A stretch of 64,000 nt of DNA, taken from contig JBMOOR010000157.1 in assembly GCA_049324555.1 (NCBI GenBank), positions 23,563-87,562 of the forward strand. Reading direction: 5' to 3'. This document shows positions 847-46,255 of the stretch, in pieces. Source of the stretch: Pseudomonadota bacterium (GTDB lineage: Bacteria > Pseudomonadota > Alphaproteobacteria > Caulobacterales > Parvularculaceae). The notes under the pieces are model-generated. The model worked only from the letters and a program-made list of their open reading frames with translations, ran no database searches and was not told where the DNA came from. Numbering within the stretch: the stretch's first letter is position 1; the number at the start of each line of letters is the position of its first letter. The position numbers and the translations under genes were made by a program.

Positions 847-2906
847 CCGACGAGAAGAAGGCCATCCCCTCCGTCTCCGTTACCTACGCCCGCAACGGCA
901 GTTCGACCAAGGCCAATGCTCTCGGCATGAGGCCGATGCAGGAGCGCGCCTACGAGAAGCGGGGCGAGCAATATCTTCTCATCAAGTCGCCGCCAGCGTC
1001 GGGCAAGAGCCGCGCGCTCATGTTCGTCGCCCTCGACAAGCTCCACAATCAGGGGCTCAAACAGGCGATCATCGTGGTGCCGGAAAAGTCCATCGGCGCG
1101 AGCTTCAATGACGAGCCGTTGTCTCGCTTCGGCTTCTGGACCGACTGGATCGTCGCGCCGAAATGGAACCTCTGCAACGCCCCCGGCTCGGACAACGGCG
1201 GCAAGGTCAATTCGGTCGAGGCGTTCCTGAAGAGCGACGACAAGGTGCTGGTCTGCACCCACGCCACCTTCCGCTTCGCCGTGGACAGATTCGGCGTAGA
1301 AGCCTTCGACGACCGGCTGATCGCCGTGGACGAGTTCCATCACGTCTCCGCCAATCCCGACAACAAGCTCGGCCTGCATCTTGGGGCATTCATCGCCCGC
1401 GACCGCGTACATATCGTGGCCATGACGGGTTCCTATTTCCGGGGCGACGCCGAAGCCGTGCTCGCCCCGCAGGACGAGTCGAAGTTCGATACCGTCACTT
1501 ACACCTACTACGAGCAGCTCAACGGCTATGAATACCTGAAGCAGCTCGACATCGGCTATTTCTTCTATTCGGGTTCCTACGCCGACGACATCCTCAACGT
1601 GCTCGATCCGGCCGAGAAGACGATCATTCATATCCCTTCCGTCAATTCGCGCGAAAGCACGAAGGACAAGATCAGGGAGGTCGAGCACATCATCGAGGAG
1701 CTGGGCGAGTGGCAGGGGGCCGATCCCACCACCGGCTTCCAGCTTGTCAGGACACCGGACGGCCGCGTCCTGCGCATCGCCGACCTGGTGGATGATGATC
1801 CCGCCAAGCGCGACGGCGTTTCCGCCGCGCTGAAAGACCCGGCGCAGAAGCACAACCGCGACCATGTGGACATCATCATCGCGCTCGGCATGGCGAAGGA
1901 AGGCTTCGACTGGATTTGGTGCGAGCACGCGCTGACGGTCGGCTATCGGTCGAGCCTTACCGAGATCGTGCAGATCATCGGCCGCGCCACCCGCGACGCG
2001 CCGGGCAAGCTGCGCGCCCGCTTCACCAACCTGATCGCCGAGCCGGACGCCTCCGAGGAAGCCGTCACCGAGGCGGTCAACGACACATTGAAGGCCATTG
2101 CGGCCAGCCTTCTCATGGAGCAGGTGCTTGCGCCACGCTTCGAGTTCAAGCCGAAGAATCCGCAGAGCGGCCCGACGCCGGGCTTCGACTATGGCGTGGA
2201 CGGCTACGACCCAAACAAGACCAATGTCGGCTTCAATGAGGAGACGGGGCAGTTCCAGATCGAGATCAAGGGTCTTGTCGCGCCGAAGAGCGAGGAAGCG
2301 CAGCGCATCTGCCAGCAGGACTTGAACGAGGTCATCGCCGCCTTCGTGCAGGATAAGACGACGATCGAACGTGGGCTCTTCGATTCCGAGCTGGTGCCGG
2401 AGGAGCTGACCCAACTTCGCATGGGCAAGATCATCAAGGACAAGTTCCCCGAGCTGGACGAGGAGGATCAGGAGGCGGTGCGCCAGCACGCTGTTGCCGC
2501 GCTCAACCTCACGCAGAAGGCCAAGGAAGTCGCCTTGGGCGGAACCGAGGGCGACGGCGAGAAGAGCCCGAACACCGCCTTCATTGAGGGGGTCCGCAAG
2601 TTCGCAATGGATGTCCGCGACTTGGACATCGACCTGATCGACCGCATCAACCCCTTCGGAGAAGCCTATGCCATCCTCGCCAAGACGATGAGCGAGGAGA
2701 GCCTGAAGCAAGTCGCCGCTGTGATCGGGGCCAAACGTGTCAACCTCACCATTGAGGAAGCGCGCGAGCTTGCCAAGCGGGCCTTGAAGTTCAAGCAGGA
2801 GCGTGGCCGGCTGCCCTCGATCACCTCGCCTGACGCCTGGGAAAAGCGCATGGCCGAGGGCGTGGCCTTCCTTCAACGCATGAAGGCGGAGGCGGAGCGT
2901 GGCTAA
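843..2906 (+). CDS. SF2 DEAD/DEAH-box helicase, YeeB-like
   Basis: Walker A SPPASGKS, motif II DEFHH, motif III TGS, motif VI QIIGRATR; 687 aa. Confidence 0.85.
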   Translation: MTDEKKAIPSVSVTYARNGSSTKANALGMRPMQERAYEKRGEQYLLIKSPPASGKSRALMFVALDKLHNQGLKQAIIVVPEKSIGASFNDEPLSRFGFWTDWIVAPKWNLCNAPGSDNGGKVNSVEAFLKSDDKVLVCTHATFRFAVDRFGVEAFDDRLIAVDEFHHVSANPDNKLGLHLGAFIARDRVHIVAMTGSYFRGDAEAVLAPQDESKFDTVTYTYYEQLNGYEYLKQLDIGYFFYSGSYADDILNVLDPAEKTIIHIPSVNSRESTKDKIREVEHIIEELGEWQGADPTTGFQLVRTPDGRVLRIADLVDDDPAKRDGVSAALKDPAQKHNRDHVDIIIALGMAKEGFDWIWCEHALTVGYRSSLTEIVQIIGRATRDAPGKLRARFTNLIAEPDASEEAVTEAVNDTLKAIAASLLMEQVLAPRFEFKPKNPQSGPTPGFDYGVDGYDPNKTNVGFNEETGQFQIEIKGLVAPKSEEAQRICQQDLNEVIAAFVQDKTTIERGLFDSELVPEELTQLRMGKIIKDKFPELDEEDQEAVRQHAVAALNLTQKAKEVALGGTEGDGEKSPNTAFIEGVRKFAMDVRDLDIDLIDRINPFGEAYAILAKTMSEESLKQVAAVIGAKRVNLTIEEARELAKRALKFKQERGRLPSITSPDAWEKRMAEGVAFLQRMKAEAERG

Positions 2907-4092
2907 AGGCTTCACCGACGAGGATGACGCACTTCTCGAAGAGCTTGGTGTCGAGGTCGAGACGAAGAAGGAGTCGAGCCGGACGCCGCGGGAAGAGCGC
3001 GTCATCGCCAACTTCGAGGAGATTCAGCGTTTCGTCGAGAAGCACGGCCGCCCTCCGCAGCACGGCGAGGACCGTGACATCTTCGAGCGCCTTTATGCCG
3101 TGCGCCTCGATCGCCTGCGCGCGCAGGCCGATTGCCACAGCTTGCTCGCTGCCCTCGATCACCAAGGGATTCTCGCCGGCGCGGAACCTGTCCCCGTCAG
3201 CGCGGCCGACGAACTCGACGATGATGAGCTACTGGCGCAGCTTGGGGTGGACGCGGAGCCGACCGACATCACGGAACTCCGACACGTCCGGTCAGCAGCG
3301 GAGAAGCGCGCGGCCGAGGAAATCGCCAATCGCCAGACATGCGAGGATTTTGACCAGTTCAAACCGCTGTTCGAGCAGGTGCAGAAGGAACTGAGCGCCG
3401 GCCTGCGGCAGACTCGGCGCTTCGAGCGCAAGTCCGAGATCGCGCCCGGCCGCTTCTATATTCTTGGCGGTCAGAAAGCCTATGTCGCGTCAATGGAGCA
3501 ACCGAGCGTTAATGAGCACGGCAATATAGACGCCCGGCTTCGCGTAATCTTCGACAATGGCACCGAGAGCAATCTTCTCATGCGGTCGCTTCAAAAGGCG
3601 CTGCAACAAGACCCGGCCGGACGGCGGATCGTCGAGCCTTCGGCCGGCCCACTCTTCGCCGATCACAATGAGGAAGGCGACGAGGCCAGCGGCATCGTCT
3701 ATGTGCTACGGAGCAAATCCGATCATCCGGCCGTCGCGGCTCACCGCGACGTGCTGCACAAAATTGGCGTGACCGGCGGCGATATTGCTCGTCGCCTGGC
3801 CAATGCGAAGCTCGATCCGACCTTTCTCATGGCAGAAGTCGAAGTCGTCGCCACCTACGAGCTGTTCAACATCAACCGCACCCGGCTGGAGAACCTGATC
3901 CATAGGATCTTCGGCGCCGCCCGTCTCGACATCGAGATCAAGGACCGTTTTGGCCAGCCGGTCATCCCGCGCGAATGGTTTCTGGTACCCCTGTTCGTGG
4001 TCGATGAGGCCATTGAGAAGATCAGGAACGGAACGATCACCGGCTACACTTACGACCCGAAAACCGCCTCGCTCACACGCGCAGCGCAATAA
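2899..4092 (+). CDS. GIY-YIG/T5orf172 domain nuclease, YeeC-like
   Basis: C-terminal GIVYVLRS...HKIGVT...RRLANA...RLENLIHRIF...PREWF pattern of T5orf172; GTG start overlaps yeeB stop. Confidence 0.8.
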   Translation: MAKGFTDEDDALLEELGVEVETKKESSRTPREERVIANFEEIQRFVEKHGRPPQHGEDRDIFERLYAVRLDRLRAQADCHSLLAALDHQGILAGAEPVPVSAADELDDDELLAQLGVDAEPTDITELRHVRSAAEKRAAEEIANRQTCEDFDQFKPLFEQVQKELSAGLRQTRRFERKSEIAPGRFYILGGQKAYVASMEQPSVNEHGNIDARLRVIFDNGTESNLLMRSLQKALQQDPAGRRIVEPSAGPLFADHNEEGDEASGIVYVLRSKSDHPAVAAHRDVLHKIGVTGGDIARRLANAKLDPTFLMAEVEVVATYELFNINRTRLENLIHRIFGAARLDIEIKDRFGQPVIPREWFLVPLFVVDEAIEKIRNGTITGYTYDPKTASLTRAAQ

Positions 4093-4166
4093 CAGCCTCA
4101 GTGTTCGCATGTCCGACAACATTGCGGCGATCAGGACGCTGACTTCAGATCTCACAGCTCCGCACA

Positions 4167-4458
4167 TCCTGATCGGCTCCTTGTGCCCGGCTCCCGCTGA
4201 CGCTCCCGCCGCGCCCGCTCGCTAAGGGCTCTGCCCTCGCGCGGGCAAGGGATCGCTGACGCTCGGCCAGGGCGGTCTCCCCGACCTTCCGCGCGGATGC
4301 GACTTTGGGCACCCAACAACTCCAGAAATCCGCTTGTGCAGGCCGGGTGATCCCCCTCCGCCCCGGCCGCCCTTGCCCTTGCTACCCCGGTCTCGCCGAC
4401 GGGCAGGGCTGCAGCGCAGCGCTGCGCTGCAACCCAAGCCCATAGGAGAAAGACCATG
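4167..4458 (+). repeat. ~290-bp structured leader repeat, copy 1 (ends at ParB-like ATG)
   Basis: Aligns with 11264-11557 from TCCTGATC through GCTAAGGGCT..., GGGTGATCCCCCTCCG..., and TGCAGCGCAGCGCTGCGCTGCAACCCAAGCCCATAGGAGAAAGACC to the ATG. Confidence 0.95.
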
Positions 4459-6519
4459 ACCACGAAAGCGAATGCCACCCCCGTCATCGAGAATGGCGCG
4501 ACGGTTTTCATCCCGCTCAACAAGCTCAAAAAGCATCCGAAGAACGCCCGGAAGACTCCGCACAGCGAGGCGTCCATCGAGGCGAAGGCGGCGAGCATCG
4601 CCGTTAAGGGTATCCTGCAAAACCTTGTGGTGGAGCCGGAGCTTGACGCCGAAGGCCAGCCGACCGGCTTCTATCTTGTCAGCATCGGTGAAGGCCGCAG
4701 ACTGGCGCAGCTTCTCCGCGCGAAGCGGAAGGAGATCAAGAAGACCGAGCCGATCCGCTGCGTCATCGACACGGAGAACGACGCCGCCGAGATCAGCCTT
4801 GACGAGAACGTGACCCGCGAAGACTTGCACCCCGCAGACCAGTTCGAGCGCTTCCGCGAGCTTGCGGAAGATCGCGGATGGGGCGCGGAGGAAATCGCGG
4901 CCCGCTTTGGCATGACCGCGCATGTGGTGAAGCAGCGGCTGCGTCTCGGCGCTGTCAGCCCCAAGCTGCTTCAGGTCTATCGCGATGGCGGCTTGACCCT
5001 CGACCAGTTGATGGCGTTCGCCATCACCGAGGATCATGCCCGGCAGGAGCAGGTCTATGAAAACCTCTCCTATAATAGAGAGCCGCGCCTCATCCGCCAC
5101 GACCTCATGAAGTCCAATGTGGCGGCGATGGATCGGCGCGCAATCTTCGTCGGCTCGGAAGCCTACGCGGAAGCTGGCGGCGTCATCCTCCGCGATCTGT
5201 TCACGGAGGATCGCGGCGGCTTCTACGAGGATGCCGCGTTGCTGGACCGGCTTGTCATCGAGAAACTGGAGCGGATCGCCGCCGAGGTTCAGGCGGAAGG
5301 CTGGAAGTGGGTTTCTGTCAATATCGACTACCCCCATGCCCACGGCCTGCGCCGCGCTTATCCGCGTCCGGTGGAGCTTTCCGAGGAAGACGCCGCCGCA
5401 TACGACGCCGCGCAGGAGGAATATGACCGCCTGTCGTCGGAATACGAAAGCGCGGAGGAACTGCCCCACGATGTGGACCAGCGCTTCGGAGAGCTTGAAG
5501 CGGAGATTGAGCGCATCGACGCCAAGCGCCATGCTTACGATCCCGACGAGCTCGCGCGCGGCGGCGCTTTCGTGGTCCTGAACCATGACGGGACCGCCCG
5601 CGTGGAGCGCGGTTTCATCCGCCCGGAGGACGAGAAGCCGGAGCCGGAGGAAGCCGAGGGCGGCGAAGCCATCATCGACGGCGTGCGCGTCAATGGCGAT
5701 GGCGGGATCATCGAGGGTGGCGACTATGACGAGGACGGGAGCCATGTTTCGGCGCTCGACACCGAGGACGAAGTAGCGGAGGACGACGGCAAGCCGCTGT
5801 CGGACCTTCTCATCCGCGACCTGACCGCTCACCGGACGCTTGGCCTTCGCCTTGCGCTTGGCGAGCAGCCGGACATGGCCTTGATCGCCGTCACGCATGC
5901 GCTCGCCGCACAGACCTTCTATCGCGGCGCGGATGCGGCCTGCCTCGAAATCCGTCCCACCAGTCCGCACCTTGGCGGACATGCGGACGGCATCGAGGAC
6001 ACGGCGGCAGGCAAGGCGCTGGCGGATCGTCACGCCGGATGGGCGGCGGACATGCCGCGCGACGTGGCGGACCTGTGGGGCTTCATCGCCGGGCTGGATC
6101 AGGCGAGCGTCATGGCGCTGTTCGCGCATTGCGCTTCGCTGACCGTCAACGCGGTGAAGCAGCCTTGGGAGCGGAAGCCTCGCGCGCACGAAACGGCGGA
6201 CAGGCTGGCGACGGCGCTCGCTCTCGACATGACGGCGCATTGGATGCCGACCGCACGGACCTATCTCGGCCGCGTGACCAAGGCGCACATTCTCGCCGCT
6301 GTACGCGAAGCCGTCAGCGACGAGGCGGCGGATCGCATCGCCAGCATGAAGAAGCAGCCGATGGCGGAAGCCGGTGAGCAGCTTCTTGCCGGGACCGGCT
6401 GGCTGCCGTCCCTCATGCGGACGCCCGAACCCGCATGGCTGACTGACGCCCACACCGCTGATGTCGAGGATGCGTCAGATGCGGAGAATGCCGACACCTT
6501 CTCCGTCGCGGCGGAATGA
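4456..6519 (+). CDS. ParB/Spo0J-like N-terminal domain protein of ICE/plasmid leading regions
   Basis: IPLNKLKKHPKNARK, GILQNLVV, GEGRRLA, ENVTREDLHPADQFERF; RBS AGGAGA; 687 aa. Confidence 0.85.
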   Translation: MTTKANATPVIENGATVFIPLNKLKKHPKNARKTPHSEASIEAKAASIAVKGILQNLVVEPELDAEGQPTGFYLVSIGEGRRLAQLLRAKRKEIKKTEPIRCVIDTENDAAEISLDENVTREDLHPADQFERFRELAEDRGWGAEEIAARFGMTAHVVKQRLRLGAVSPKLLQVYRDGGLTLDQLMAFAITEDHARQEQVYENLSYNREPRLIRHDLMKSNVAAMDRRAIFVGSEAYAEAGGVILRDLFTEDRGGFYEDAALLDRLVIEKLERIAAEVQAEGWKWVSVNIDYPHAHGLRRAYPRPVELSEEDAAAYDAAQEEYDRLSSEYESAEELPHDVDQRFGELEAEIERIDAKRHAYDPDELARGGAFVVLNHDGTARVERGFIRPEDEKPEPEEAEGGEAIIDGVRVNGDGGIIEGGDYDEDGSHVSALDTEDEVAEDDGKPLSDLLIRDLTAHRTLGLRLALGEQPDMALIAVTHALAAQTFYRGADAACLEIRPTSPHLGGHADGIEDTAAGKALADRHAGWAADMPRDVADLWGFIAGLDQASVMALFAHCASLTVNAVKQPWERKPRAHETADRLATALALDMTAHWMPTARTYLGRVTKAHILAAVREAVSDEAADRIASMKKQPMAEAGEQLLAGTGWLPSLMRTPEPAWLTDAHTADVEDASDAENADTFSVAAE

Positions 6520-6526
6520 AAGTTGA

Positions 6527-6599
6527 GCCGGGACCGCGCAAGCGGTCCCGGCCTGCCACCGGAAAAATCCGGCCGCGCGGCTTCACCGCGCGGCCGGAT
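6527..6599 (+). terminator. Two GC-rich hairpins after ParB-like gene
   Basis: 11-bp stem 6527-6537/6542-6552 with GCAA loop; 14-bp stem 6567-6580/6586-6599. Confidence 0.6.
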
Positions 6600-6722
6600 G
6601 ACCTCGACTGTCCAAGGGCCGACTGCCGTGTTTCAGGTCGACAGAGAGGCCAAGCATTGGCACGATAGGGGCGACCGAAACACGGGGGCGAAGGACAAGG
6701 AACGGTAAGTAGGAGGACGATC

Positions 6723-7145
6723 ATGATCGCCGTAATGCTTATGAGCGTGGCGCTGATCGCGATCCTCTGTGTCGTCGCCTATAGGCTTGCCGTCTATGCG
6801 CTGCCCCTCATGCTCGGATTGACTGCCGCCCAATTCGCCAATCAAACCGGCTCCGGCCTGATCGGCGCGGGGCTCGTCGGCTTGGTCGCCGCAGGTGTGG
6901 CGTTTGGTATTCTAGCGCTTCTGTTCGACACGCTGCGCCAGCCGATCCTTCGCCTGATCGTGGCGCTAATTTTCGCCGCCCCCGCCGCCGTCGCGGGCTA
7001 CGCGCTCGTTCACGGCGTCACACGCGAGGCCGTGCCCTCGGAGGTCTGGCGGCAGATTTTCTGCATAAGCGGCGGCGCGTTCGTCGGCATATCCGCACTT
7101 TTGCGATTGGCCGCGCCGGTTGATGCCAGACCAATCGGCGCATAG
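6723..7145 (+). CDS. Hydrophobic membrane protein (ICE conserved hypothetical)
   Basis: RBS AGGAGG; about four hydrophobic segments; followed by CCAATCGGC/GCCGATTGG hairpin. Confidence 0.7.
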   Translation: MIAVMLMSVALIAILCVVAYRLAVYALPLMLGLTAAQFANQTGSGLIGAGLVGLVAAGVAFGILALLFDTLRQPILRLIVALIFAAPAAVAGYALVHGVTREAVPSEVWRQIFCISGGAFVGISALLRLAAPVDARPIGA

Positions 7146-7175
7146 CCGATTGGCGCACGACCGCGTGAGTTGGTG

Positions 7176-7565
7176 TCATTTCCGATGATAGGTCAGCGCC
7201 AATGCGATGCAGTGGCGCAGCGCCGCCAGCGGCAAGCGCGAGGTGAGATCAAATAGAAGCGCGCGGTTGCCGATAAACCGAAACTTGTCTGGATAAAGGT
7301 CGCGGAACTGCTGCAGCAGATTCGTCGTGCAGATGAAATACATCGTGACCTCGTTGGGCGCTTTCACCTTCCACCCAAGCCGCACCGTGCTGCCCTTTGT
7401 TGTCCGGTAGGCCGGCTCCCCCCACTTGGGCGATTCCTCTACGTCGCCTGCGTTTGCTCGCTCGGCAGCGTCGAAAATGATCTGCCGCAGACTCAGCAAG
7501 CGCGTGCGCGCCTCCACCGGCATAGCATGCAAGACCGCAGCCACCTCTGAATTGATGGTCTTCAT
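7176..7565 (-). CDS. DUF1801 (YdhG-like) protein
   Basis: RLLSLRQIIFDAA...VEESPKWGEPAY...GSTVRLGWK pattern; 129 aa from ATG at 7565. Confidence 0.75.
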   Translation of the reverse strand: MKTINSEVAAVLHAMPVEARTRLLSLRQIIFDAAERANAGDVEESPKWGEPAYRTTKGSTVRLGWKVKAPNEVTMYFICTTNLLQQFRDLYPDKFRFIGNRALLFDLTSRLPLAALRHCIALALTYHRK

Positions 7566-8372
7566 GTTTCGCCTCCGTGCCGCGAACACATCATCCGCCG
7601 CCGTCAGTTCTTCTACCAGAGTCCTTAAACCCAAATTTGGAGCGTTGCCCTTCGGGCCGCGCTTTCGGCTTCGCCGGCACCACGCCTTCGGCGCGTTTCC
7701 GCCATTCGGCTTCAATCGCTAACGCAAGAGAGGGCGGAGGCGGCCAGCTCGCACGACGTCCCGCCATGTCGGGCTCCATCGAGATTCCGGCCTCTATCGC
7801 CGCGTCGAGATCATGAGGCAGCCTCGCCACCTCGGCCGCGACACGCTCCGGCAGCTTGAACGGGAGCGGCGGGATCGTCGTCGTGACTTAGCGGATCGCA
7901 CCGCATCCCTCATGCCGGCTTCATCGGCGGCGCAACGGTCGCGCCAGTAAAGATGCGAAAGATAGCCGGCACAAATTGTCGTTGACCGGATCATTCCAGC
8001 GAGTCTTGTCAGTGAGGGCGATGGCTTCAACTTGACCGTCGTTGATCCCGCATCGTCGGCTTGGCGCGGAGGCCGACCGTCGCCTGTCGTGCCCATGTCG
8101 ATTTCCATGCTGGCCGCCCATCCGCGCCCTCGATTGGCAGGGGTCTGACCGAAGACCGGCGCCGCTGCGCGTCGCCTCGCTCGTCTTCCCGCAACGACCG
8201 TCGCCAGCTTTTTTCCGCCGCCTTCGGCTTTGCATCGCGAAGCAAAAAAGCCGTCGCCGGCCGCCTTCCACTGAGTTTCAGCCCTGACGGGTGCGGGGCC
8301 GATCGTCCCCGGTCGCACGACCCCCATCGAGGTCGCGATGGGCGCGGCCCGATTGGAAAAAGGAACACGACA

Positions 8373-8687
8373 ATGGCGACCATCGGCACCTTCACCAGCA
8401 CCGACAACGGCTACACCGGCACGGTCAAGACCCTCACTCTCAACGTCAAGACCGTGAAGTTCGTCCCGGCCGAGGGCGACAGCGAACGCGGCCCCGACTT
8501 TCGCATCTTTGCCGGCGCCACCGAGTTCGGCGCCGCCTGGAAGAAGACCGCCCGCGAGACGCAGCGCGAATACCTCTCCGTCAAGCTGGACGATCCGAGC
8601 TTCGCCGCCCCGATTTACACCAGCCTGGTCGCGGCCGAGGACGGCGAGAGCCACAACCTCATCTGGTCCCGCCGCAACGGCGACTGA
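8373..8687 (+). CDS. DUF736 family protein, copy 1
   Basis: MATIGTFT...GTVKTLTL...[16 protein letters not shown]...[16 protein letters not shown]; RBS AAGGAA. Confidence 0.9.
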
Positions 8688-8701
8688 GGCCGGAACCCCA
8701 A

Positions 8702-8729
8702 GAAGCCCCGCTCACCCGAGCGGGGCTTC
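8702..8729 (+). terminator. Hairpin after DUF736
   Basis: 12-bp perfect stem GAAGCCCCGCTC/GAGCGGGGCTTC. Confidence 0.6.
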
Positions 8730-8886
8730 GCCATGCTCATGGCCGCCACCGCCTGTCAGGAAACAAGTCGATAAGAATATCGCGTATTCCATTCAACCGC
8801 TCAGACGGCCGATTCAGGATAACATAGTCGTTGGTTAGAATGCGGCGAGTCGGGCCAGATTGGCCCGAAGCGGACATCGCGGACGG

Positions 8887-9483
8887 TTATATGTTCGACA
8901 CGAACCAGACAATGAACGACGCGACGCCGAGAAGCGCGATCGCGAGCAAAATTCTCACGGACAATGAGTCTCTCGCTGCCACTTGCTTCGGCCATGGCAG
9001 CGTCAAAGCGCGCAGCGCCGCGACGAAGGCCGCCGTCCCTCCAGCAACGCGTATCCAATCCAGCTGCACCCACCGAGACGCCATGCTCGTGGCTTCCGCG
9101 TTCGTCAGCGTCTGCCCTGGTGCACCGCTTGCGTGGCCCCAGAGCGCTGCGTTCATCGGCCAAAAGACGAGGACGGTCAGGACGAGCATGGCAAAGATGC
9201 CGAGCGCTGGAATGCACAAGAGCCACCGATAGGACCACGGCGTGCGCCAACCAGAGAGTAGTGCCCCAAACGATGCGATCAGCAAGGCCGCCGAGGAAGG
9301 AATGAAGAACACGCCGGTATCGACAGGCCAGGCCGTTCCATAAGGTAGCAATGCTAATGATCGGGGTGGGTCAGCGCTCCAAGCGCCGGCGAGGACGATG
9401 AGATCGAAGAGTTTGGCCCCAACAAGCGGCCCCGCAGCGAGGACCGCGAGCCAAAGAAACGCCTTCGTCGCACGCTCCCGCAT
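8887..9483 (-). CDS. DUF1772 (anthrone oxygenase-like) membrane protein
   Basis: Several TM helices; FWPMNAALW and RWVQLDWIRVA pattern; probable start ATG 9483. Confidence 0.65.
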   Translation of the reverse strand: MRERATKAFLWLAVLAAGPLVGAKLFDLIVLAGAWSADPPRSLALLPYGTAWPVDTGVFFIPSSAALLIASFGALLSGWRTPWSYRWLLCIPALGIFAMLVLTVLVFWPMNAALWGHASGAPGQTLTNAEATSMASRWVQLDWIRVAGGTAAFVAALRALTLPWPKQVAARDSLSVRILLAIALLGVASFIVWFVSNI

Positions 9484-9606
9484 CGTCGCGCCAAGCCTCC
9501 TCGAATGAGCCATCCTACAAGCCTCAAGTGTGGCCGTGAAGGGACGAGCGGAAGGTCGCACACAGCGGCCACCGCTTTTTGGTCCCCGTCCGCTATCGGC
9601 GAATGC

Positions 9607-11155
9607 TGTTGCAAAAGTCGGTGATTTCGGCGGTTTCCTCTCGTCGAGGTGCGGCTTGGTCGAGTTTGGCGACCGGCGGTTCCAACGCCGGGCTGCCTTC
9701 GCTGGGTCTATGCGGCGGCCGTTGCGGGGCTTGGCGGGGCGACAAGCTTGGCGAGTTTTCTAAGGTTCTGAGCAGCCGCGGCGAGAGTGAATTCGTCGTG
9801 TGCGCCCGACGGCCCGCGCAGCCGCAGCCGATCGAGCTTCAAGATGCGCTTCAGGTGCGCGAACAGCATCTCGACCTTCTTCCGCTCGCGGCGCGATTGC
9901 TCGTAGTCCGGCCCAGCGTTGATCGCGCGGGCGACATCGCGCGCGGCTTCGTGGACGCTGCGTGTGACCTTGCGCATGGGTTGGCCGGGACAGCAGCGCT
10001 GCTTGAGCGGGCAAGCGCCGCAATCTGATTGCCGTGCGCGATAGCGTTTCTGGCCATCTTTGTTGACGCCGGATCGCGATGTTTCGTAGGCGCGCCGATA
10101 TTGCACCAGGGTTTTGCCGCCCGGGCATGTGTAGGCGTTGGCGTCGGCGTCAAACACAAAATCGGAGCGGCTGAAGGTCCCGTCGTCGCGCTCGCCTTTG
10201 TCCCACACCGGCACGTGTGGCGCGATGTTCTTCTCGTCGACCATCCAGGCCAGCATTTCCGCTGTCCCGTAAGCAGTGTCGCCGATCAGCCGCTTGGGCC
10301 TCATGCCGAAACGGTCCTCAACGCGATCGATCATCGCCTTCGTCGCCGCGACTTCCGCCGTGCGCAGCGCAGGCGTGGCCGCGACATCCATGATCACCGC
10401 GTGCTTCACATCGATCAAGTAATTCGTGCACCAGCCGAAGAAAGCTGGACGTCCCACTGCCGCTGTCAGCCGTGATGCGGGATCCGAGAGCGAAATCTCC
10501 TTCGGCGGCGCAGCTTCGCGATCAAGGCCGTCGAGATATTCGCGCACTGCGCGGCTGGGGCCGCCTCCGCCCGCACCGCCACTCCAATCGTGGTCGTCGC
10601 CGCCGTCGATGTGATTTTGGCGGTTGGCGTCAGCGCGAATGATGCTGGCATCCGTCGCGAAGCCTTCGCCGCCGACCAGACCCTTCTCGATGCAGGACCT
10701 GACCGTCGTCTCGAACACGTGGCGCAGAACCTCGGCGTCGCGAAAGCGGCCATGACGGGCTCTCGAGAACGCCGAATGGTCCGGGATTGCGTCTTCAAGG
10801 CCCAGTCGGCAAAACCAACGATAAGCCAGGTTGAGGCGGACCTCCTCACACAGGCGCCGTTCAGAGCGGATGCCGTAGCAATAGCCGATCAAGAGCATCC
10901 GGATCATCAGCTCGGGATCGATCGAAGGCCGCCCGGTGTGCGAATAGTAGGGCGCGAGCTGCGTCCTCAGACCGGAGAGATCGAGCACCGCGTCGATCCT
11001 GCGCAACAGATGATCGCCCGGAACCGCCTCATCCAGATTGAACTGATAGAAAAACTGGCCCTGCGCGCCGGCTTTCTCTCCCATCATCGTCGCCTCCCTC
11101 GCTCGCAGCACAAGGGAATCAGCGTTCGCCTAACAACGCATGGAGTTTTGCAACA
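9607..11155 (-). mobile_element. IS1182-family insertion sequence
   Basis: Terminal inverted repeats TGTTGCAAAAGTC (9607-9619) and GAGTTTTGCAACA (11143-11155) enclosing a transposase. Confidence 0.85.
9708..11087 (-). CDS. IS1182-family DDE transposase
   Basis: HLLRRID, GRPSIDPELMIRMLLIGYCYGIRSERRL, IPDHSAFSRARHGRF, DASII, GDTAYG, RKKVEMLFAHLK. Confidence 0.95.
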   Translation of the reverse strand: MMGEKAGAQGQFFYQFNLDEAVPGDHLLRRIDAVLDLSGLRTQLAPYYSHTGRPSIDPELMIRMLLIGYCYGIRSERRLCEEVRLNLAYRWFCRLGLEDAIPDHSAFSRARHGRFRDAEVLRHVFETTVRSCIEKGLVGGEGFATDASIIRADANRQNHIDGGDDHDWSGGAGGGGPSRAVREYLDGLDREAAPPKEISLSDPASRLTAAVGRPAFFGWCTNYLIDVKHAVIMDVAATPALRTAEVAATKAMIDRVEDRFGMRPKRLIGDTAYGTAEMLAWMVDEKNIAPHVPVWDKGERDDGTFSRSDFVFDADANAYTCPGGKTLVQYRRAYETSRSGVNKDGQKRYRARQSDCGACPLKQRCCPGQPMRKVTRSVHEAARDVARAINAGPDYEQSRRERKKVEMLFAHLKRILKLDRLRLRGPSGAHDEFTLAAAAQNLRKLAKLVAPPSPATAAA

Positions 11156-11263
11156 AAATTGGCGAGTTCCCGACTGGGACAGTAAGGGGCTCTGGCGTCC
11201 GCCTTAAAACTGTGACTGGCCGGCTGAATCCTTGGCCCACCATTGCTCTTCAGCAAATATATG

Positions 11264-11557
11264 TCCTGATCAGATCCTTTGCCCGGCCGCCGCTGGCGCT
11301 CTGGCCGCGCCGATCTTGCTAAGGGCTCCGCCCTCGCGCGGCGCAAGGGATCGCTGACGCTCGGCCGGGACGGTCTCCCCGACCTTCCGCGCGGATGCGT
11401 GCTGCGCACTGTCGTCATGCCTCCATCCGCTTGTGCAGGCCGGGTGATCCCCCTCCGTCCCGGCCGCCCTTGCACCTTGCTACCCCGGTCTCGCCGACGG
11501 GCAGGGCTGCAGCGCAGCGCTGCGCTGCAACCCAAGCCCATAGGAGAAAGACCAATG
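11264..11557 (+). repeat. ~290-bp structured leader repeat, copy 2 (ends at DUF932 ATG)
   Basis: Homologous to 4167-4458 except a ~28-nt central loop. Confidence 0.95.
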
Positions 11558-12745
11558 AACACCGTGACCCTGAACCCGCAGTCTGTTTCGTCCGGTTTCC
11601 GCGTGGATGTTTCGCGCGGACAGCGGATCGGCCGCGTTTCGTCGGAGTGGTTTTCGCGCCCAGATGACGAGCGCTTTCTGTCGCTCACGGAGCTTTACGA
11701 CACCGTGAAGGCGAGAGCGGAGCGCGCCACCGCCCGCACCGTGGAGAGCCGCGCCGTGCGCGTGGAGGCGAACAGGGAGGATGCGGAGCGGCTTTCGCTT
11801 ATCGTTCCCGGACAGGATGAGCCCATCGCGCCGACGCATTGGAGCTTCGGCCAGCTTTGCAGTCTTGTAGGAGCGCCCGCCAGCTATATGCGCCAGCTCC
11901 CCGCGCCACTCGCAGGCATCAATCTGCAGCATGGCTTGCTGTCGCACCGCGCCGAGCTTGTGAAGACCTTGGAGGCGGAAGACGGACGCATCGAGCTTCG
12001 CGCCGTGACCGGGCCGGACTATGGCCGCATTTGGGATCACGAGCTTGTCGCCGCCGTGATGCGGATCGCGGGGAACGGCATTGGCGATACGATGTGGAAG
12101 GTGCCGGGCGTGCTGGATTGGGCGACCATGACGCACAACCCCTTTATTGACGTGACCAAGGACACGACGACGCTTTATGCGAGCGACCGCGACGTGTTCC
12201 TGTTTCTCGTGGACGACACGCACCCCATCGAAGCCGGGCGGCTTCCGAACGGCGAGCCGGATTTGTATTTCCGGGGCTTCTATTGCTGGAATAGCGAAGT
12301 CGGTAGCAAGACCCTCGGCATCGCCTCTTTTTATCTCCGCGCGGTGTGCATGAACCGCAATCTTTGGGGCGTGGAAGGCTTCGAAGAAATCAGCATCCGG
12401 CACAGCAAGTTCGCCGCGCAACGCTTCGCCCATGAAGCGGCCCCCGCGCTGACCAGCTTTGCCAATTCGTCGCCCGCGCCTTTCGTGGCGGGGATCAGGG
12501 CGGCGCGGGAAAGGATCGTCGCCCGCACCGACGAGGACCGCGAAGGCTTCCTGCGCAAGCGCGGCTTCTCCAAGGCCGAGACGGCGAAGATCATCGAGAC
12601 CGTGTTGCAGGAGGATGGCCGTCCGCCGGAAAGCATCTTCGATTTCGCGCAAGGCATGACGGCGCATGCCCGCACCAAGGCGCATCAGGACACGCGCCTT
12701 GAACTGGAGGCGAAGGCGAAGACCTTGCTTGAGAAGGCCGCATAG
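11555..12745 (+). CDS. DUF932 domain protein (phage/plasmid-like)
   Basis: RVSSEWFSRPDDERFLSL, PTHWSFGQL, LRAVTGPDYGRIWD, LYASDRDVFLFLVD, NSEVGS; RBS AGGAGA; 396 aa. Confidence 0.85.
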   Translation: MNTVTLNPQSVSSGFRVDVSRGQRIGRVSSEWFSRPDDERFLSLTELYDTVKARAERATARTVESRAVRVEANREDAERLSLIVPGQDEPIAPTHWSFGQLCSLVGAPASYMRQLPAPLAGINLQHGLLSHRAELVKTLEAEDGRIELRAVTGPDYGRIWDHELVAAVMRIAGNGIGDTMWKVPGVLDWATMTHNPFIDVTKDTTTLYASDRDVFLFLVDDTHPIEAGRLPNGEPDLYFRGFYCWNSEVGSKTLGIASFYLRAVCMNRNLWGVEGFEEISIRHSKFAAQRFAHEAAPALTSFANSSPAPFVAGIRAARERIVARTDEDREGFLRKRGFSKAETAKIIETVLQEDGRPPESIFDFAQGMTAHARTKAHQDTRLELEAKAKTLLEKAA

Positions 12746-17404: not shown

Positions 17405-17510
17405 AGACGGCGACCGGGCGCGACACGGCCACCGTTTCAGTGTGCAGGCGGATAGCGTGGACTCACGGACAGAAGCAGGCGGGAGGAGCAAAAAGGGCGG
17501 AAAGGCGTGA

Positions 17511-17551
17511 GGGCAAGATAAAACAAAGCGGCACCCTGTCGGGCCGCTTTG
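17511..17551 (-). promoter_or_regulatory. Candidate oriT: IR plus RP4-like nic site
   Basis: Minus strand TATCTTG^CCC (17520-17511) versus RP4 TATCCTG^CCC, preceded on that strand by the 9-bp IR CAAAGCGGC/GCCGCTTTG (17524-17551); lies just upstream of the relaxase. Confidence 0.6.
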
Positions 17552-17717
17552 GCAAATTGTTGTTGTCTGCACACTGGTTAGGGTCGCCTCGCACGGCACT
17601 CCATTTGCTGGCAGTGCGTGCCGTCCATTGGCTCAACCCGTTGGCTTCGCTGACTTCTCAACGGCACCATAGCTCAGAACGGTGCGTTTTCGCCCCATTG
17701 CCGCCAGGACGGCGCCC

Positions 17718-19769
17718 ATGAGCGCCGACGACGAGGATCGGTTTCGGCCGAGGCCGGGCCGCATCCGATCCGACACACGCGGCGGCGCGCGGACCAAGAG
17801 CTTCTTCACCAGGGTAAGGAAGATCACCCGGCAGCAGTGCACCGCGCCAGCTCGCCATGGCCCGCGCCGGAGCGCGAGCGCTTCGGCCAAGGGCGCCGCC
17901 CGCGCGCGCGCCGCCAGTGGACCCGGCGTCAGACGCGGGCGCGGTGCGGCCTTCATTCGGTCGCGCCAGCTCGCGGGCGGTTGGCGCCACAGCCAGCCCG
18001 GTGTGCGTCGCGTCGTCGTCAAAACGCGCTTCGTCCACAAGGCCGGAAGGAACGGCAAGGCCGCCGCCCATCTGCGCTATATCCAGCGCGACGGCACGGC
18101 GCGCGACGGCGAACGCGGCCAGCTCTATTCTGAGACGGAGGATCGCGCCGACGGACGCAGCTTTCTGGAACGTGGCAAGGAGGATCGCCACCAGTTCCGC
18201 TTCATCATCTCGCCCGAAGACGGCGCCGACCTGTCGGACCTCAAAGCTCACACCCGCGACCTTATGAACCAGATGGAAGCGGACCTCGGCACGAAGCTCG
18301 ATTGGGTCGCGGTCAATCACTACAACACCGGTCATCCGCATGTTCATGTCATCGTCAACGGGCGTGACGAGCTGGGCGGGGATCTGGTCATCAACGGCGA
18401 CTATCTCGCCAACGGCATCCGCGAGCGGGCGAGCGAGTTGGCGACGCTCGAACTCGGCCCCGTCACCGAGATCGAGCAGCGCCGCAAGTTATCGGCTGAG
18501 ATCGACCAGGACCGCTTCACTCGCATCGACCGGGCGATGACGGAAGAAGCCGAGGACCGCTTCCTCGATCTGTGCCATCAGCCGGCCGAACCGAGACGCC
18601 AGTTCAACCGTGCGCTTCGCCTGCGCCGCCTCGCCAAGCTGGAGAAGATGGGGCTCGCTGCCGAGCATGCGCCCGGCGTCTGGGAGCTAAGCGAGCGGCT
18701 GGTGCCGACCTTGCGCGCGTTGGGCGAGCGCGGCGACATCGTCCGCTCCATGCACAAGGCGCTGAAGGCCGATGGCATGGAGCGCGATCCGATGACCTTT
18801 CGCATCCACGAGGCCGCGCCCGAAACATCCATCGTCGGCCGCGTCGTCGACAAATACCTGTCCGACGAACTGGGTGAGAACCTCACTCTTGTCGTCGATG
18901 GGATCGATGGGCAGACGCACCATGTCTCCAGCATTGAGCCGGCTCGCGTGGACGACGCACGAATCGGCAGCATCGTCGAGATCGGCCCGGCCGAAGCGAC
19001 GCGGCGTCCGTCCGACCAAGCCATCGCCTCCATCGCCGAGAGCGGGGTCTATCGGCCGAGCCGACATCTGGAGCAGGCCCGCTTCGAGGGGCGTGTTCCG
19101 GGCGGCGACTATCAGGGCTTTATCGACGCCCATGTCCGCCGGCTGGAGGCGTTGCGCCGCGCTGGTATTGCCGAGCGGATCGACGCTGACCAATGGCGCA
19201 TCCCCGAAGACTTCGAGCATCGCGCCACCGCCTACGACGCCGGTCGGCGCCGGCAGGCCAATATCCGCATCCTTTCGGCCTTCGATCTGGACAAGCAGAT
19301 CGGCGCCGACGGCGCGACCTGGCTCGATCGGCGGCTGATCGTCGGCGAGGCTTCCGATCTCGCCCCCGCCGGCTTCGGGCAGCAGGTTCGCGACGCAATG
19401 GACCGCCGGCGCGATCACCTAATCGACCGGGGCGACGCCACCCGCCAACAGAACGGCCGCGTCTTCTACCGGCGCAATCTCCTCGCTACGCTGCGCGAAC
19501 GCGATGTCGCTCGCGCCGGCGCCGAACTGGCGACGAGCAAGACCATGCCGTTCCGCGCCGCAAGAGACGGCGAAACCGTCGGCGGCAAGTTCACCGGCGC
19601 CGTCCAGCTATCGAGCGGCAAGTTCGCCATCGTCGAAAAGAGTTATGAGTTCACCCTTGTCCCCTGGCGGCCGGTCATCGACCGTCAACTCGGCCGCGAA
19701 GTCATGGGCGTCGTGCAAGGGGGGTCGGTATCGTGGCAGTTGGGACGGCAAAGGGGTCTCGGGCTGTGA
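17718..19769 (+). CDS. rlxS: VirD2/MOBP-type relaxase with DUF3363 C-terminus (RlxS-like)
   Basis: AHLRYIQRDG (catalytic Tyr), RHQFRFIISPEDG, HYNTGHPHVHVIV (HUH). Confidence 0.92.
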   Translation: MSADDEDRFRPRPGRIRSDTRGGARTKSFFTRVRKITRQQCTAPARHGPRRSASASAKGAARARAASGPGVRRGRGAAFIRSRQLAGGWRHSQPGVRRVVVKTRFVHKAGRNGKAAAHLRYIQRDGTARDGERGQLYSETEDRADGRSFLERGKEDRHQFRFIISPEDGADLSDLKAHTRDLMNQMEADLGTKLDWVAVNHYNTGHPHVHVIVNGRDELGGDLVINGDYLANGIRERASELATLELGPVTEIEQRRKLSAEIDQDRFTRIDRAMTEEAEDRFLDLCHQPAEPRRQFNRALRLRRLAKLEKMGLAAEHAPGVWELSERLVPTLRALGERGDIVRSMHKALKADGMERDPMTFRIHEAAPETSIVGRVVDKYLSDELGENLTLVVDGIDGQTHHVSSIEPARVDDARIGSIVEIGPAEATRRPSDQAIASIAESGVYRPSRHLEQARFEGRVPGGDYQGFIDAHVRRLEALRRAGIAERIDADQWRIPEDFEHRATAYDAGRRRQANIRILSAFDLDKQIGADGATWLDRRLIVGEASDLAPAGFGQQVRDAMDRRRDHLIDRGDATRQQNGRVFYRRNLLATLRERDVARAGAELATSKTMPFRAARDGETVGGKFTGAVQLSSGKFAIVEKSYEFTLVPWRPVIDRQLGREVMGVVQGGSVSWQLGRQRGLGL

Positions 19770-21775: not shown

Positions 21776-22741
21776 ATGCGACGGCGGCGTTCACCTCTTA
21801 TAGTTGATCATCGGTTGGGGATACCGACCTCGCTGGGATCGCGCATTCCTCTCGCCTCGCTCATTCAGACGCTGGCCGTCGCTGAATATCTGAACTTCCG
21901 CCACGCAGCGAACGCGCTCGGCGTCGCGCAATCCAGTGTCAGCGCGCGCATAAAAGCTTTGGAGGAAGACCTTGGCATCCTGCTTTTCGAGCGTCACGCG
22001 CGGGGCGTTCGGCTGACGGAAGCCGGCCAGCATTTCGTCGAGAGGGTGACGACAGGCATCGGACATCTCGACCATGCCGTAAGGACAGCCGGCATGGTGG
22101 CGCGCGGCGAGAAGGGCAGCTTGCGCATCGGCATCTATGCGCTGGTCCCCGGCAGCTTCCTCGCCAACCTTCTTAAACAATTCCGGGAACAACATCCGGG
22201 CGTCGAGTTCGAAATCGTCGAAGGTACAGCCCGCGATAGCATCACGCGGCTCCGGGCAGACCGGCTAGACATGACGTTCGTGGCAGGTTCGCCTGAGTTT
22301 CCCGACTGTCATTCTCGGCGGATATGGAGCGAGCGGCTGCTTGCCGCGTTGCCGTCCCGTCACCCGCTCGCCGATGGAGCAGGCGTCACCTGGGCCGATC
22401 TGGCGGGCGACACCTTCATCGTCCGCCACGGTGGCACTGGCCCCCAGGCGCATGACCACATTGTCCTGCGCCTCGCAGGCAGATTTGCGAGGCTGTCAAT
22501 CCTGCGCTTCGATGTCGAGCGCGGCACACTGCTGTCGATGGTTGCGCAAGGCTATGGCGTCACCATCGCCGGCGAGGCGACATCGCCGATGCTCGCGCCT
22601 GGCGTGACCTTCCTACCGATTCTCGACGAGCCGGGACCACTCGCGTTCTCCGCAATCTGGTCCCCGCACAACCGTAACCCCGCGCTCGGAAGCCTTCTCG
22701 ATCTAGCAGCCAAGATGAGTCGGTCAGGCTGGACAACCTGA
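21776..22741 (+). CDS. LysR family regulator, copy 1 (TraR-like of Tn4371)
   Basis: AVAEYLNFRHAANALGVAQSSVSARIKALEEDLGILLFER...LTEAG. Confidence 0.9.
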   Translation: MRRRRSPLIVDHRLGIPTSLGSRIPLASLIQTLAVAEYLNFRHAANALGVAQSSVSARIKALEEDLGILLFERHARGVRLTEAGQHFVERVTTGIGHLDHAVRTAGMVARGEKGSLRIGIYALVPGSFLANLLKQFREQHPGVEFEIVEGTARDSITRLRADRLDMTFVAGSPEFPDCHSRRIWSERLLAALPSRHPLADGAGVTWADLAGDTFIVRHGGTGPQAHDHIVLRLAGRFARLSILRFDVERGTLLSMVAQGYGVTIAGEATSPMLAPGVTFLPILDEPGPLAFSAIWSPHNRNPALGSLLDLAAKMSRSGWTT

Positions 22742-23559: not shown

Positions 23560-23629
23560 GTTTGTTCCTTCTGCGTTGGATGGGCCCATGCTAAATCCCG
23601 TCAGTGTCAGAAAACGGCAGTGGCGTTCC

Positions 23630-28125: not shown

Positions 28126-29088
28126 ATGCGGCGCCGAAGCCTCAAGAAAGATCGTCTGGGTCAATCCGTTCCCCCGCTGTCGGATGGACGGATTCCGATG
28201 GCATCCCTCATACAGGCTCTCGCTGTTGCCGAGTATCTGAATTTTCGTCACGCGGCGAATGCGCTCGGTGTCAGCCAGTCAAGCGTCAGCATGCGTATCA
28301 AAATGCTGGAGGAAGACCTTGGCGTGCTGCTATTCGAGCGCCGGTCTCGCGGCGTGCGGCTAACTGAGGCGGGCCGCCATTTCGTCGAGCAGGTCTCCAT
28401 TGGCATCGACCAACTCGACCACGCGGTGAAGACAGCGGGGATGCTCGCGCGCGGCGAACAGGGAGTCCTGCGGATCGGCCTGCATGCTTTCGTCTCTTCG
28501 GGCTTTGTCGCCGATCTGTTGAGCCGCTTTCGGGAGGCACATCCCGGCGTCGATGTCGAGATCGCTGAAGGAAGCCCACGCGAGATGTTGATGCAGGTGC
28601 GCGAGGCCCGGCTGGACGTGGCCTTCGTGGCGGATTCTTACTCCGTCGCCGACTGCCATTCGCGCCCCCTTTGGACTGAGGGGCTTATGGCTGCCATCCC
28701 GGCAAACCATCCGCTTGCTAGCAGCCAAGACGTGACTTGGCGTGGTCTCGCAGCGGATACCTTTTTGGTTCGCTACGGAAGCGACGGCGCCCTGCTTCAC
28801 GATCGCATCCGCTTACGACTGACGGAACGGGGGCCTTCTCCTACAATCCTGCGCGTCAACGTGGATCGGCTGACACTGATGTCGATGGTCGGACAAGGCT
28901 ATGGAGTGACGATCGCCAGCGAGGCGACCGCGAAAATATCCGTTCCCGGCGTCGTATTCCTGCCTATCCTCGACGAGCCGGAGCCAATCGTCTTCTCCGC
29001 CGTCTGGTCTCCCGGCAATCACAGCCCAGCGCTCCGCGCTTTCCTCGATCTGGCCCAAAAAGCCGCCCGCTCACCTTCGGCGGCCTGA
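28126..29088 (+). CDS. LysR family regulator, copy 2
   Basis: Paralog of 21776 (IPMASLIQALAVAEYLNFRHAANALGV); start chosen by analogy. Confidence 0.88.
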   Translation: MRRRSLKKDRLGQSVPPLSDGRIPMASLIQALAVAEYLNFRHAANALGVSQSSVSMRIKMLEEDLGVLLFERRSRGVRLTEAGRHFVEQVSIGIDQLDHAVKTAGMLARGEQGVLRIGLHAFVSSGFVADLLSRFREAHPGVDVEIAEGSPREMLMQVREARLDVAFVADSYSVADCHSRPLWTEGLMAAIPANHPLASSQDVTWRGLAADTFLVRYGSDGALLHDRIRLRLTERGPSPTILRVNVDRLTLMSMVGQGYGVTIASEATAKISVPGVVFLPILDEPEPIVFSAVWSPGNHSPALRAFLDLAQKAARSPSAA

Positions 29089-45807: not shown

Positions 45808-45854
45808 CCTCCACCTTCGGAGGGTGGCGCTCTATCCAGCTGAGCTATGGGTGC
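45778..45854 (-). tRNA. tRNA-Arg (anticodon CCG), ICE integration site
   Basis: Minus strand GCACCCATAGCTCAGCTGGATAGAGCGCCACCCTCCGAAGGTGGAGGTCACAGGTTCGAATCCTGTTGGGTGCGCCA; stem CCACC/GGTGG, loop CT-CCG-AA, CCA end; 77 nt. Confidence 0.97.
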
Positions 45855-45894: not shown

Positions 45895-46255
45895 CGGATT
45901 CGGCTGTTTTCTAACTTACTCCCGGATCGAGGGCGCTTCAATGCGCCAGCCTATGCATCCGCCTTCGTTCGTACGCTTCGCGTCGCTTACGCGAGATTCA
46001 TTCAGCTTGCAGCGGCCTATCTTACAAACTGACAACCGCTTGTTTTTCTGTTCCCTTTCTGACTCACCCCTCACCGAAAACTGCTTGACACATCCCTTCG
46101 GAGGGCAACTCTCTATCCTGCTGAGCTCCGGATGCTGCAGGATATCCCTTAGCCGAATGAGGGTGAGCGGCCAACGCTGGCAAAGCGATGCCGATTTCAC
46201 GCCTCGTTGGCGGCCCACAAGCTCGGTCATGCTTAGCCGAAGGGAGATCTTCGCC

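Follow-up and report, generated by a model that had tools for sequence, protein, structure and literature searches.

On F- and I-type plasmids, early expression of genes from the incoming single strand beats restriction and the SOS response, and to our knowledge the only hairpins so far described in this role are enterobacterial mimics of sigma-70 promoters. A hairpin of single-stranded DNA (ssDNA) is also read by host RNA polymerase, as is proposed for the element described here, at the minus-strand origin of the filamentous phages f1/M13; that origin differs in that it primes replication, mimics -35/-10 boxes and has no gene downstream. The radC and STAXI RNA motifs, reported by Weinberg in 2010, are said to be conserved structures that mobile elements carry ahead of radC and of anti-restriction, integrase and methylase genes. 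The present work concerns two repeated gene leaders in a 64,000-nt stretch of contig JBMOOR010000157.1 (assembly GCA_049324555.1, forward-strand positions 23,563 to 87,562; hereafter the window) from a bacterium of the Parvularculaceae. The window holds an integrative and conjugative element (ICE) of the DUF2840 / TraF(S26) / SLT / relaxase(DUF3363) / TraG / Trb type, and both leaders are copies of a genuine, widespread and structured element that is linked to anti-defence and establishment genes and has apparently not been described so far.

Frpo/ssi and ssp2/ssp3 of IncF/IncI plasmids are the precedent for expression from ssDNA (PMC11541004, PMC12672017, PMC13478746, 10.64898/2026.01.09.698686). 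The present element resembles Frpo and ssi1-3 (ssp1) of IncF and IncI1 in that it is an imperfect hairpin of ~300 nt, repeated within one element and GC-rich against its surroundings, in that it stands directly ahead of leading-region genes (there ssb, psiB and ardA; here ParB-like, ArdC, ArdA and DUF932 genes), and probably also in that the orientation of these genes would make the transferred strand the template. It differs in its hosts, which are mainly Alphaproteobacteria with many ICEs among the carriers, in its P1 hairpin, pseudoknot-like 3′ part and invariant 7-nt bulge, and in the lack of visible sequence similarity to the GC-poor enterobacterial elements, as judged without a formal comparison. 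The sigma-70 -35/-10 (UP) elements in the stem that define Frpo are neither present in the window copies nor conserved, and ssDNA activity is putative; for these reasons the element is not filed as a member of the Frpo family.

With ssp2 and ssp3 (Fraikin et al. 2026), the element shares the arrangement of homology-independent hairpins before anti-restriction genes (there ardB/klcA and a methylase gene); several unrelated hairpin classes can evidently serve this role, and ssp2 is very GC-rich. Those hairpins have mapped start sites and recognisable boxes, in which the element studied here differs from them. On p576 and pLS20 (Reg576), several upstream-region copies likewise precede ardC or establishment genes and one precedes a regulator gene, but these are duplex operators with TTATCCC heptamers and without intrastrand covariation (PMC6294495).

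Structure of the two leaders

The leaders at positions 4167-4455 (copy 1) and 11264-11554 (copy 2) were about 88-90% identical (mean column identity 90%), and the apical loop was the sole stretch in which they diverged. Their shared homology begins with TCCTGATC at 4167 and 11264 and continues up to the start codons, the 3′ ends having the form AGGAG-N7-8-ATG (ATG at 4456-4458 and 11555-11557, respectively). A preliminary description of this DNA had presented them as near-identical leaders ending at the ribosome-binding site (RBS) and ATG of two genes, which the alignment and the coordinates bear out. The extent given there stands for the repeat itself, but copy 1 reaches farther upstream, to ~4127, because an upstream hairpin of the ICE subfamily is present (GATCAGGACG 4129-4138 / CATCCTGATC 4165-4174, 26-nt loop, spanning 4129-4174 of the minus strand); its true span is thus ~4127-4455. 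This hairpin is conserved in related ICEs, and its left arm is missing from copy 2. Both copies are assigned to the minus strand, which is the strand proposed to fold.

From upstream to downstream, copy 1 comprises the small hairpin P1 (AGGGC-TCT-GCCCT, 4225-4237, minus strand), the rod (4245-4376, minus strand), a 3′ module and a proximal hairpin. The helices of the rod are P2 (4245-4251/4370-4376), P3 (4264-4275/4358-4369) and P4 (4278-4287/4340-4350), followed by an apical stem (4293-4298/4328-4333), with the invariant bulge TCCCCCT at 4351-4357. The 3′ module CCCCGGTCTCGCCGACGGGCAG (4385-4406, no strand assigned) contains two crossing mini-helices, GTC/GAC (4390-4392/4398-4400) and GCC/GGC (4395-4397/4402-4404), and is followed by a palindromic hairpin, TGCAGCGCAG/CGCTGCGCTGCA (4410-4431, no strand assigned), the sequence of which varies in relatives while the hairpin is always kept. 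The Shine-Dalgarno (SD) sequence AGGAG (4444-4448) and the ATG of the ParB-like gene close this region on the plus strand (4444-4458). In copy 2, P2 lies at 11343-11349/11467-11473 and P3 at 11362-11373/11455-11466.

All of the stems named in the preliminary description were found again: the GCAAGGG/CCCTTGC arms are P2, the 12-bp stem with a G-C to A-T double change between the copies is P3, and the apex-closing GCGGAT/ATCCGC stem is the apical one. The 12-bp stem of copy 1 carries one additional A·C mismatch (A4269·C4364). The rod folds in both copies, as had been claimed, but is merely one part of a multi-helix element. Single-sequence folds of both leaders gained modestly over dinucleotide shuffles (z -0.8 to -3.2), so that two copies alone are no proof of structure and the family alignment is decisive. 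Folded as minus-strand DNA, the leaders gave -80 to -91 kcal/mol (copy 1, -90.7 kcal/mol, z -2.85).

Covariation in the family

Because a global MAFFT alignment of 265-nt windows was too gappy (659 columns), a curated seed alignment of 26 sequences (A2) and a covariance model (R1; 159 positions, 36 pairs) were used instead. R1 recovered 114 elements (alignment A3), including both window copies at 120-127 bits (copy 1, 4221-4407, 119.9 bits; copy 2, 11318-11505, 126.5 bits). Paired stem cells made up 92.2% of 3727 in A3; column shuffles gave 72.5%, and sliding the partners gave 34-56%. Changes on both sides were counted in 654 cells where 165 were expected from the shuffles. Double changes occurred at 29 of the 36 pairs; in P3, 11 of 12 pairs change on both sides with complementarity kept, and helix 1 (P1) was 95.8% paired, with GC, AU and CG exchanges. 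A3 leans towards structure, since it was fitted to the model; the seed aligned by MAFFT only gives the same pattern. The covariation first proposed from the two copies therefore holds in the larger alignment.

Read 5′ to 3′ on the gene strand, members of the family share P1, P2 (CAAGGG/CCCTTG), an optional inserted hairpin, P3 (12 bp of free sequence) and P4 (TCCCCNNCCT / AGGNNGGG-T-GA), which faces the invariant unpaired GATCCCCCT. A variable apex, CTTGCTACCCC, the mini-module and a variable perfect hairpin follow, and the element ends in AACCCAAGCCCA before SD and ATG. Each of the two crossing 3-bp helices in the mini-module covaries, GTC/GAC with TA, CG and GC exchanges and GCC/GGC at its second pair (CG 66 versus GC 31). 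In the ICE subfamily that includes copy 1, the upstream hairpin (GATCAGGAYG...CATCCTGATC) and a stem CCCGGC...GCCGGG are added to this plan. The right arm of the hairpin (CATCCTGATC in copy 1; GTCCTGATCAG in copy 2, 11264-11275) has an ATCCTG core of the kind found in MOBP nick regions and T-DNA borders, although the match may be coincidence.

In Rfam, the sole match in the window at gathering score was the tRNA gene at 45781-45854, and at E up to 10 the leaders gave chance miRNA-like matches on the palindrome and a relative (locus L014) gave none. No Rfam model thus matched either leader, a difference from radC and STAXI, and no family with another function came to light. Topic and motif-text literature searches gave no earlier description in the papers covered either; the motif-text matches were unrelated primers.

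Distribution and associated genes

In blastn searches of plasmids, the leader core was found in Rhizobium, Bradyrhizobium, Caulobacter, Defluviicoccus, Paracoccus, Shinella and Acuticoccus and also in Nitrosospira (Betaproteobacteria) and Thiothrix (Gammaproteobacteria), immediately ahead of ArdC-like, ParB, DUF3768 and RadC genes; the Caulobacter plasmids have four copies each. Cultured carriers include Nitrosospira multiformis ATCC 25196 (plasmid 2) and Caulobacter henricii CB4. The 24-nt right-arm pattern GTGCANNNNGGGNGATCCCCCTCC matched at least 120 stretches among species-representative genomes, mostly of Alphaproteobacteria. The scope of one ICE family, within which the element had been placed at the outset, is therefore far too narrow, and ICEs and plasmids of several proteobacterial classes carry it.

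Among the matches listed, to which the counts in this paragraph refer, there were 145 elements in 127 loci plus the window. An SD-preceded open reading frame (ORF) follows 131 of the 145, always on the same strand, at a median distance of 122 nt from core to start codon (interquartile range 119-127.5; 105 of 131 within 105-135 nt). These ORFs fell into clusters of ParB-like (45), ArdC (23), DUF932 (16), DUF3768 (10), ArdA (5), MerR (4), 396-aa type (3), N6/N4 methylase (2), DUF6876 (2) and RadC (1) proteins, completed by singletons. Such cargo is the repertoire known from plasmid leading regions (PMC11541004). A mobile repeat of the REP/MITE kind was ruled out by the narrow spacing of those 105 copies and the few cargo families.

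In a viral collection, the GTGCANNNNGGGNGATCCCCCTCC pattern occurred in one of 2.9 million contigs, and a phage origin of the element was rejected on comparison with the genome stretches. The single viral match (L129:2219-2242, minus strand; IMGVR_UViG_3300013374_000008, 44.7 kb) may be a misclassified conjugative element. Truncated copies, with the left arm swapped for unrelated sequence, were also seen at L011:751-943 and L112:78-243 and in contigs of runs X37, X40 and X42 on L118:5595-5642. They retain the right half, the proximal hairpin and SD, and one still stands ahead of a ParB-like ORF.

Orientation relative to the relaxase

In the window, the relaxase gene (MobA/VirD2 nuclease + DUF3363; 17682-19769, plus strand) lies downstream of both elements and is co-oriented with them. 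The intergenic gap of 278 bp before it (17405-17681, no strand assigned) is a plausible origin of transfer (oriT) in view of its inverted repeat (17524-17532/17543-17551). Counting 11 loci and the window, there are 12 ICE-type sequences, the 13 copies of which all lie on the upstream side of the DUF2840-TraF-SLT-relaxase block and share its direction. The same orientation was seen for the copies of Nitrosospira plasmid 2 and of the Acuticoccus plasmid and, on each Caulobacter plasmid, for three copies out of four. In total, every non-MerR copy whose record also contains a relaxase or mob cluster (21 of 21) was co-oriented with that cluster.

On RP4 the relaxase gene enters last. If the same applies here, it is the minus strand that would be transferred and would serve as template for both genes. 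This role of the minus strand, put forward in the preliminary description, agrees with the leading-region type of the genes and with the co-oriented relaxase, but four MerR-linked copies on plasmids run in the opposite direction.

Promoter boxes and terminators

No sigma-70-like promoter was found on either strand of either leader. The suggestion of an Frpo-type promoter is accordingly unsupported on this point, the boxes rebuilt in the stem being absent from both window copies and unconserved in the family. Boxes read by hand (CTTGCG-N17-CTTAGC on the minus strand; sigma-32, sigma-54 and extracytoplasmic-function (ECF)-like) were rejected as unconserved across subfamilies. Invariant features open to recognition instead comprise GGAAGG, the purine bulge (AGGGGGATC on the minus strand) and the P4 helix with its tendency to G·T.

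A terminator-like GC hairpin with a T-run ends 9-15 nt before P1 in ~10-15 members (e.g., L014, L048, L052, L090 and L116), and a terminator-like hairpin lies within 60 nt upstream in 31 of 107 members. Where such terminators abut the element, they leave no room for a conventional promoter that would place the rod in mRNA.

The conserved block found upstream in some loci is not protein-coding. At L014:5380-5510 it is a second non-coding block of ~130 nt (GCGCACC-hairpin-GGGCTGTC-GTGAACCGAG-hairpin-CTCGGCCATCCGGCTTCCATCCCTTGCGCA) the stems of which covary; the block was also found in L052, L090, L048, L116, L042, L033 and L104 and partly in L002, L119 and L063. It has no Rfam match, and the terminator-like GC hairpin and T-run ending 9-15 nt before P1 come after it.

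The strand presumed to fold

A plus-strand A·C mismatch is a G·T on the minus strand, so that an excess of A·C favours folding of the minus strand. Family-wide, A·C was counted 130 times and G·U 43 times. The P4 pairs 136:229 and 137:228 supply 76 of the A·C and 3 of the G·U (GC 62/40, A·C 39/37, G·U 0/3; AU was also seen), and the counts elsewhere are balanced. In 12 relatives, the upstream hairpin had 130 Watson-Crick, 15 A·C and 2 G·T cells. The preponderance of G·U over A·C on the sense strand that is expected of an RNA helix was thus not found at P4 and the upstream hairpin. Pyrimidine-pyrimidine mismatches outnumbered purine-purine ones ~3:1 on the plus strand, which means G-containing mismatches on the minus strand.

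By folding energy, the minus strand was the more stable in 94-97% of members; the raw gap is largely a composition effect, as the z-scores of the strands differ slightly (-2.46 for minus and -1.99 for plus). The proximal hairpin, with mostly perfect stems, gave no signal either way. As between DNA and RNA, the mismatch types, the terminators of a subset and the orientation of the 21 non-MerR copies appear to favour the template (minus, presumably transferred) strand, and a long imperfect stem-loop on it is supported by folds and covariation, with a wobble bias that is local only.

Surroundings of the leaders

All relevant genes between 843 and 19769 are on the plus strand. Copy 1 precedes the ParB-like gene (4456-6519, plus strand; 687 aa, HTH_ParB), which represents the commonest cargo of the element. 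Copy 2 precedes a gene for a 396-aa protein (11555-12745, plus strand) of a type that also follows the element in L009 and L043. Of the identities first assigned to these two genes, ParB-like stands, but DUF932 is weak, resting on a Pfam match below the cut-off (PF06067, E 0.023).

Directly before copy 1 lies a T5orf172/MUG113 (GIY-YIG-like) gene (2899-4092), preceded by a helicase-like (DEAD/ResIII) gene that contains a PMBR repeat (843-2906); both run in the direction of the ParB-like gene and may likewise be cargo of the leading region. An insertion sequence occupies 9582-11180 on the minus strand, ~80 nt upstream of copy 2, with a transposase (9708-11111; DUF772 + DDE_Tnp_1_6) and imperfect terminal inverted repeats at 9582-9619 and 11143-11180. 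An HTH_17 (RdfS-like) gene is located at 13982. Behind the Trb region, the tRNA gene at 45781-45854 (minus strand) is a possible ICE boundary or attachment site, adjoined by a TraB/PrgY/GumN-family gene (45941-47176, plus strand). Diverged direct repeats with 72-74% identity, 6347 nt apart (21842-22141 / 28189-28488 and 22497-22707 / 28844-29054), flank a LysR-type regulator gene and suggest a duplicated cargo module.

Discussion

In the best-supported reading, which has about an even chance of being right, both leaders represent a single-strand initiation element that has been conserved, a variation on the idea of an ssDNA promoter. On this proposal, the minus strand would enter the recipient as ssDNA during conjugation, and the element of ~160-330 nt on it would fold into the long imperfect rod P2-P3-P4 with the invariant purine-rich bulge AGGGGGA and the flanking hairpins. 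The folded DNA would attract host transcription or priming machinery, and RNA synthesis would proceed into the adjacent gene ahead of complementary-strand synthesis, the outcome being a burst of protein synthesis, with ParB-like, DUF932-like, ArdC and ArdA proteins among the products. The duplex form has no recognisable promoter, and in it the genes would be silent. The gene-proximal part (the mini-pseudoknot, the variable hairpin and the fixed SD spacing) probably belongs to the transcript. The analysis establishes the structure with its covariation, the link to particular genes, the orientation shared with relaxases and a strand bias that is local; ssDNA folding, the attraction of polymerase and the timing are inferred. 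More tentatively, the element might represent a new single-strand-activated class that is free of sigma-70 boxes, at home in Alphaproteobacteria with spill-over to Beta- and Gammaproteobacteria and recognised otherwise than Frpo (e.g., by the purine bulge or the G·T-containing P4); it would turn on genes for anti-restriction and establishment from the incoming strand, and in Caulobacterales plasmids the oppositely oriented, MerR-linked copy by oriT would fire in the donor on the retained strand and report the initiation of transfer to the MerR regulator.

Several results weigh against single-strand initiation. Neither strand has a -35/-10 architecture that the family conserves, even in the form TTGNNN-N16-18-NANNNT, for which at most 22 of 110 members share one position. 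The tight SD spacing and the pseudoknot-like 3′ module are equally expected of an mRNA leader. Once near-duplicates were removed (<90/80/70% identity), the counts of A·C and G·T at pairs other than those two of P4 came to 43/36, 30/33 and 14/18, so that the A·C bias is carried wholly by those two positions; minus-strand folding, as claimed at the outset, thus agrees with the mismatch types at P4 and the upstream hairpin, but the bias is gone outside the hot positions. No nick site was identified in the 17405-17681 gap, and both the oriT and the polarity of transfer are presumed. Public RNA data (metatranscriptomes and isolate runs, none of them from the window organism) gave no usable transcript or transcription start site (TSS) evidence: the metatranscriptome depth peak at 4332-4439 is also the most conserved stretch, on which contigs of many relatives stack, and the isolate 'RNA?' runs have a flat, DNA-like depth of 3-9x with contig ends falling on repeat borders. 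Finally, four copies on Caulobacter/Phenylobacterium plasmids (L006:19474-19635, minus strand; L003:11908-12068, plus strand; L025:7563-7724; L081:3894-4057) adjoin mobC, face away from it and from the relaxase and precede a MerR gene, while the remaining three copies in these plasmids point toward mobC. On the usual polarity, the MerR-linked copies are not transcribable from the incoming strand, which tells against a strictly Frpo-like model. It may be speculated that they act on the retained donor strand; another possibility is that the element is functional in a second form as well.

The main rival, possible though distinctly less probable than single-strand initiation, is a cis-regulatory 5′-untranslated-region (5′-UTR) RNA, in which the whole element would be transcribed and its plus-sense fold would control translation, stability or termination, e.g., by means of a bound protein or of unpaired tracts rich in C (CCUUCC, CCCCCUCC). 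Such an RNA would account for a position that is always on the gene strand at a fixed distance from SD and ATG, the MerR copies included, and for an architecture of many helices, two of which cross and covary close to the RBS; the plus strand folds as well, mismatch types are balanced outside the two hot positions, and contigs in some 'RNA?' runs cover both arms, though at flat, low, DNA-like depth. It sits poorly with the frequent A·C and nearly absent G·U at P4 and the upstream hairpin, where RNA helices show the reverse, and with conserved unpaired plus-strand tracts that are C/U-rich. The terminator-like hairpins abutting P1 in a subset, the lack of a visible upstream promoter and the lack of a matching Rfam family also count against it. 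A further rival, which we consider unlikely, keeps the folding of the transferred strand but gives it a role other than that of a promoter, as a priming site for the complementary strand or as a roadblock that times the conversion of the downstream gene to duplex. The evidence for minus-strand folding applies equally to such a role and the absence of promoter boxes fits it; moreover, on F, ssp2 serves as a roadblock and the transcripts of Frpo are used as primers for DNA synthesis (10.64898/2026.01.09.698686). A primer at the element would extend through the adjacent gene. Neither the fixed 122-nt spacing to the start codon nor the pairing of each element with one gene is required for it, however, and no double-stranded promoter is visible that could take over.

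Two further explanations were weighed. An ordinary duplex promoter or operator, bound by an element-encoded repressor (e.g., an autoregulated MerR) and transiently derepressed after entry like Reg576 of p576, has a precedent (PMC6294495), and two observations would suit it: in four plasmids the MerR gene has a copy of its own alongside three others, and there are conserved palindromic bits (e.g., CTGATCAG and GCAGCGCAGCGCTGCGCTGC). It is nevertheless improbable: duplex binding needs no complementarity within one strand, whereas 11 of the 12 P3 pairs and most others change on both sides and keep it, which operators of the Reg576 type fail to explain, most ICEs that carry the element have no MerR gene near it, and promoter boxes are not conserved. 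Least probable of all is an antisense RNA, a minus-strand transcript across the leader that would silence the gene. The logic of minus-strand pairing and the RNA-like, purine-rich loops agree with it, but there is no conserved minus-strand promoter near the RBS and no terminator past P1, and the downstream coding regions, in which the promoter would be expected, are unrelated to one another.

The covariance model R1 would serve for annotation. If the element is an RNA leader instead of a single-strand initiation element, it would still constitute a large new structured-RNA family tied to conjugation. If single-strand initiation is true, the principle of early expression from the incoming strand would extend to ICEs, to GC-rich soil-, water- and plant-associated bacteria and to elements of the symbiosis-island type, and the question of mechanism would be by what a hairpin that lacks -35/-10 boxes is read. 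The element would then also serve to mark leading regions, and anti-defence cargo that is still uncharacterised, across hundreds of ICEs and plasmids of Alphaproteobacteria.

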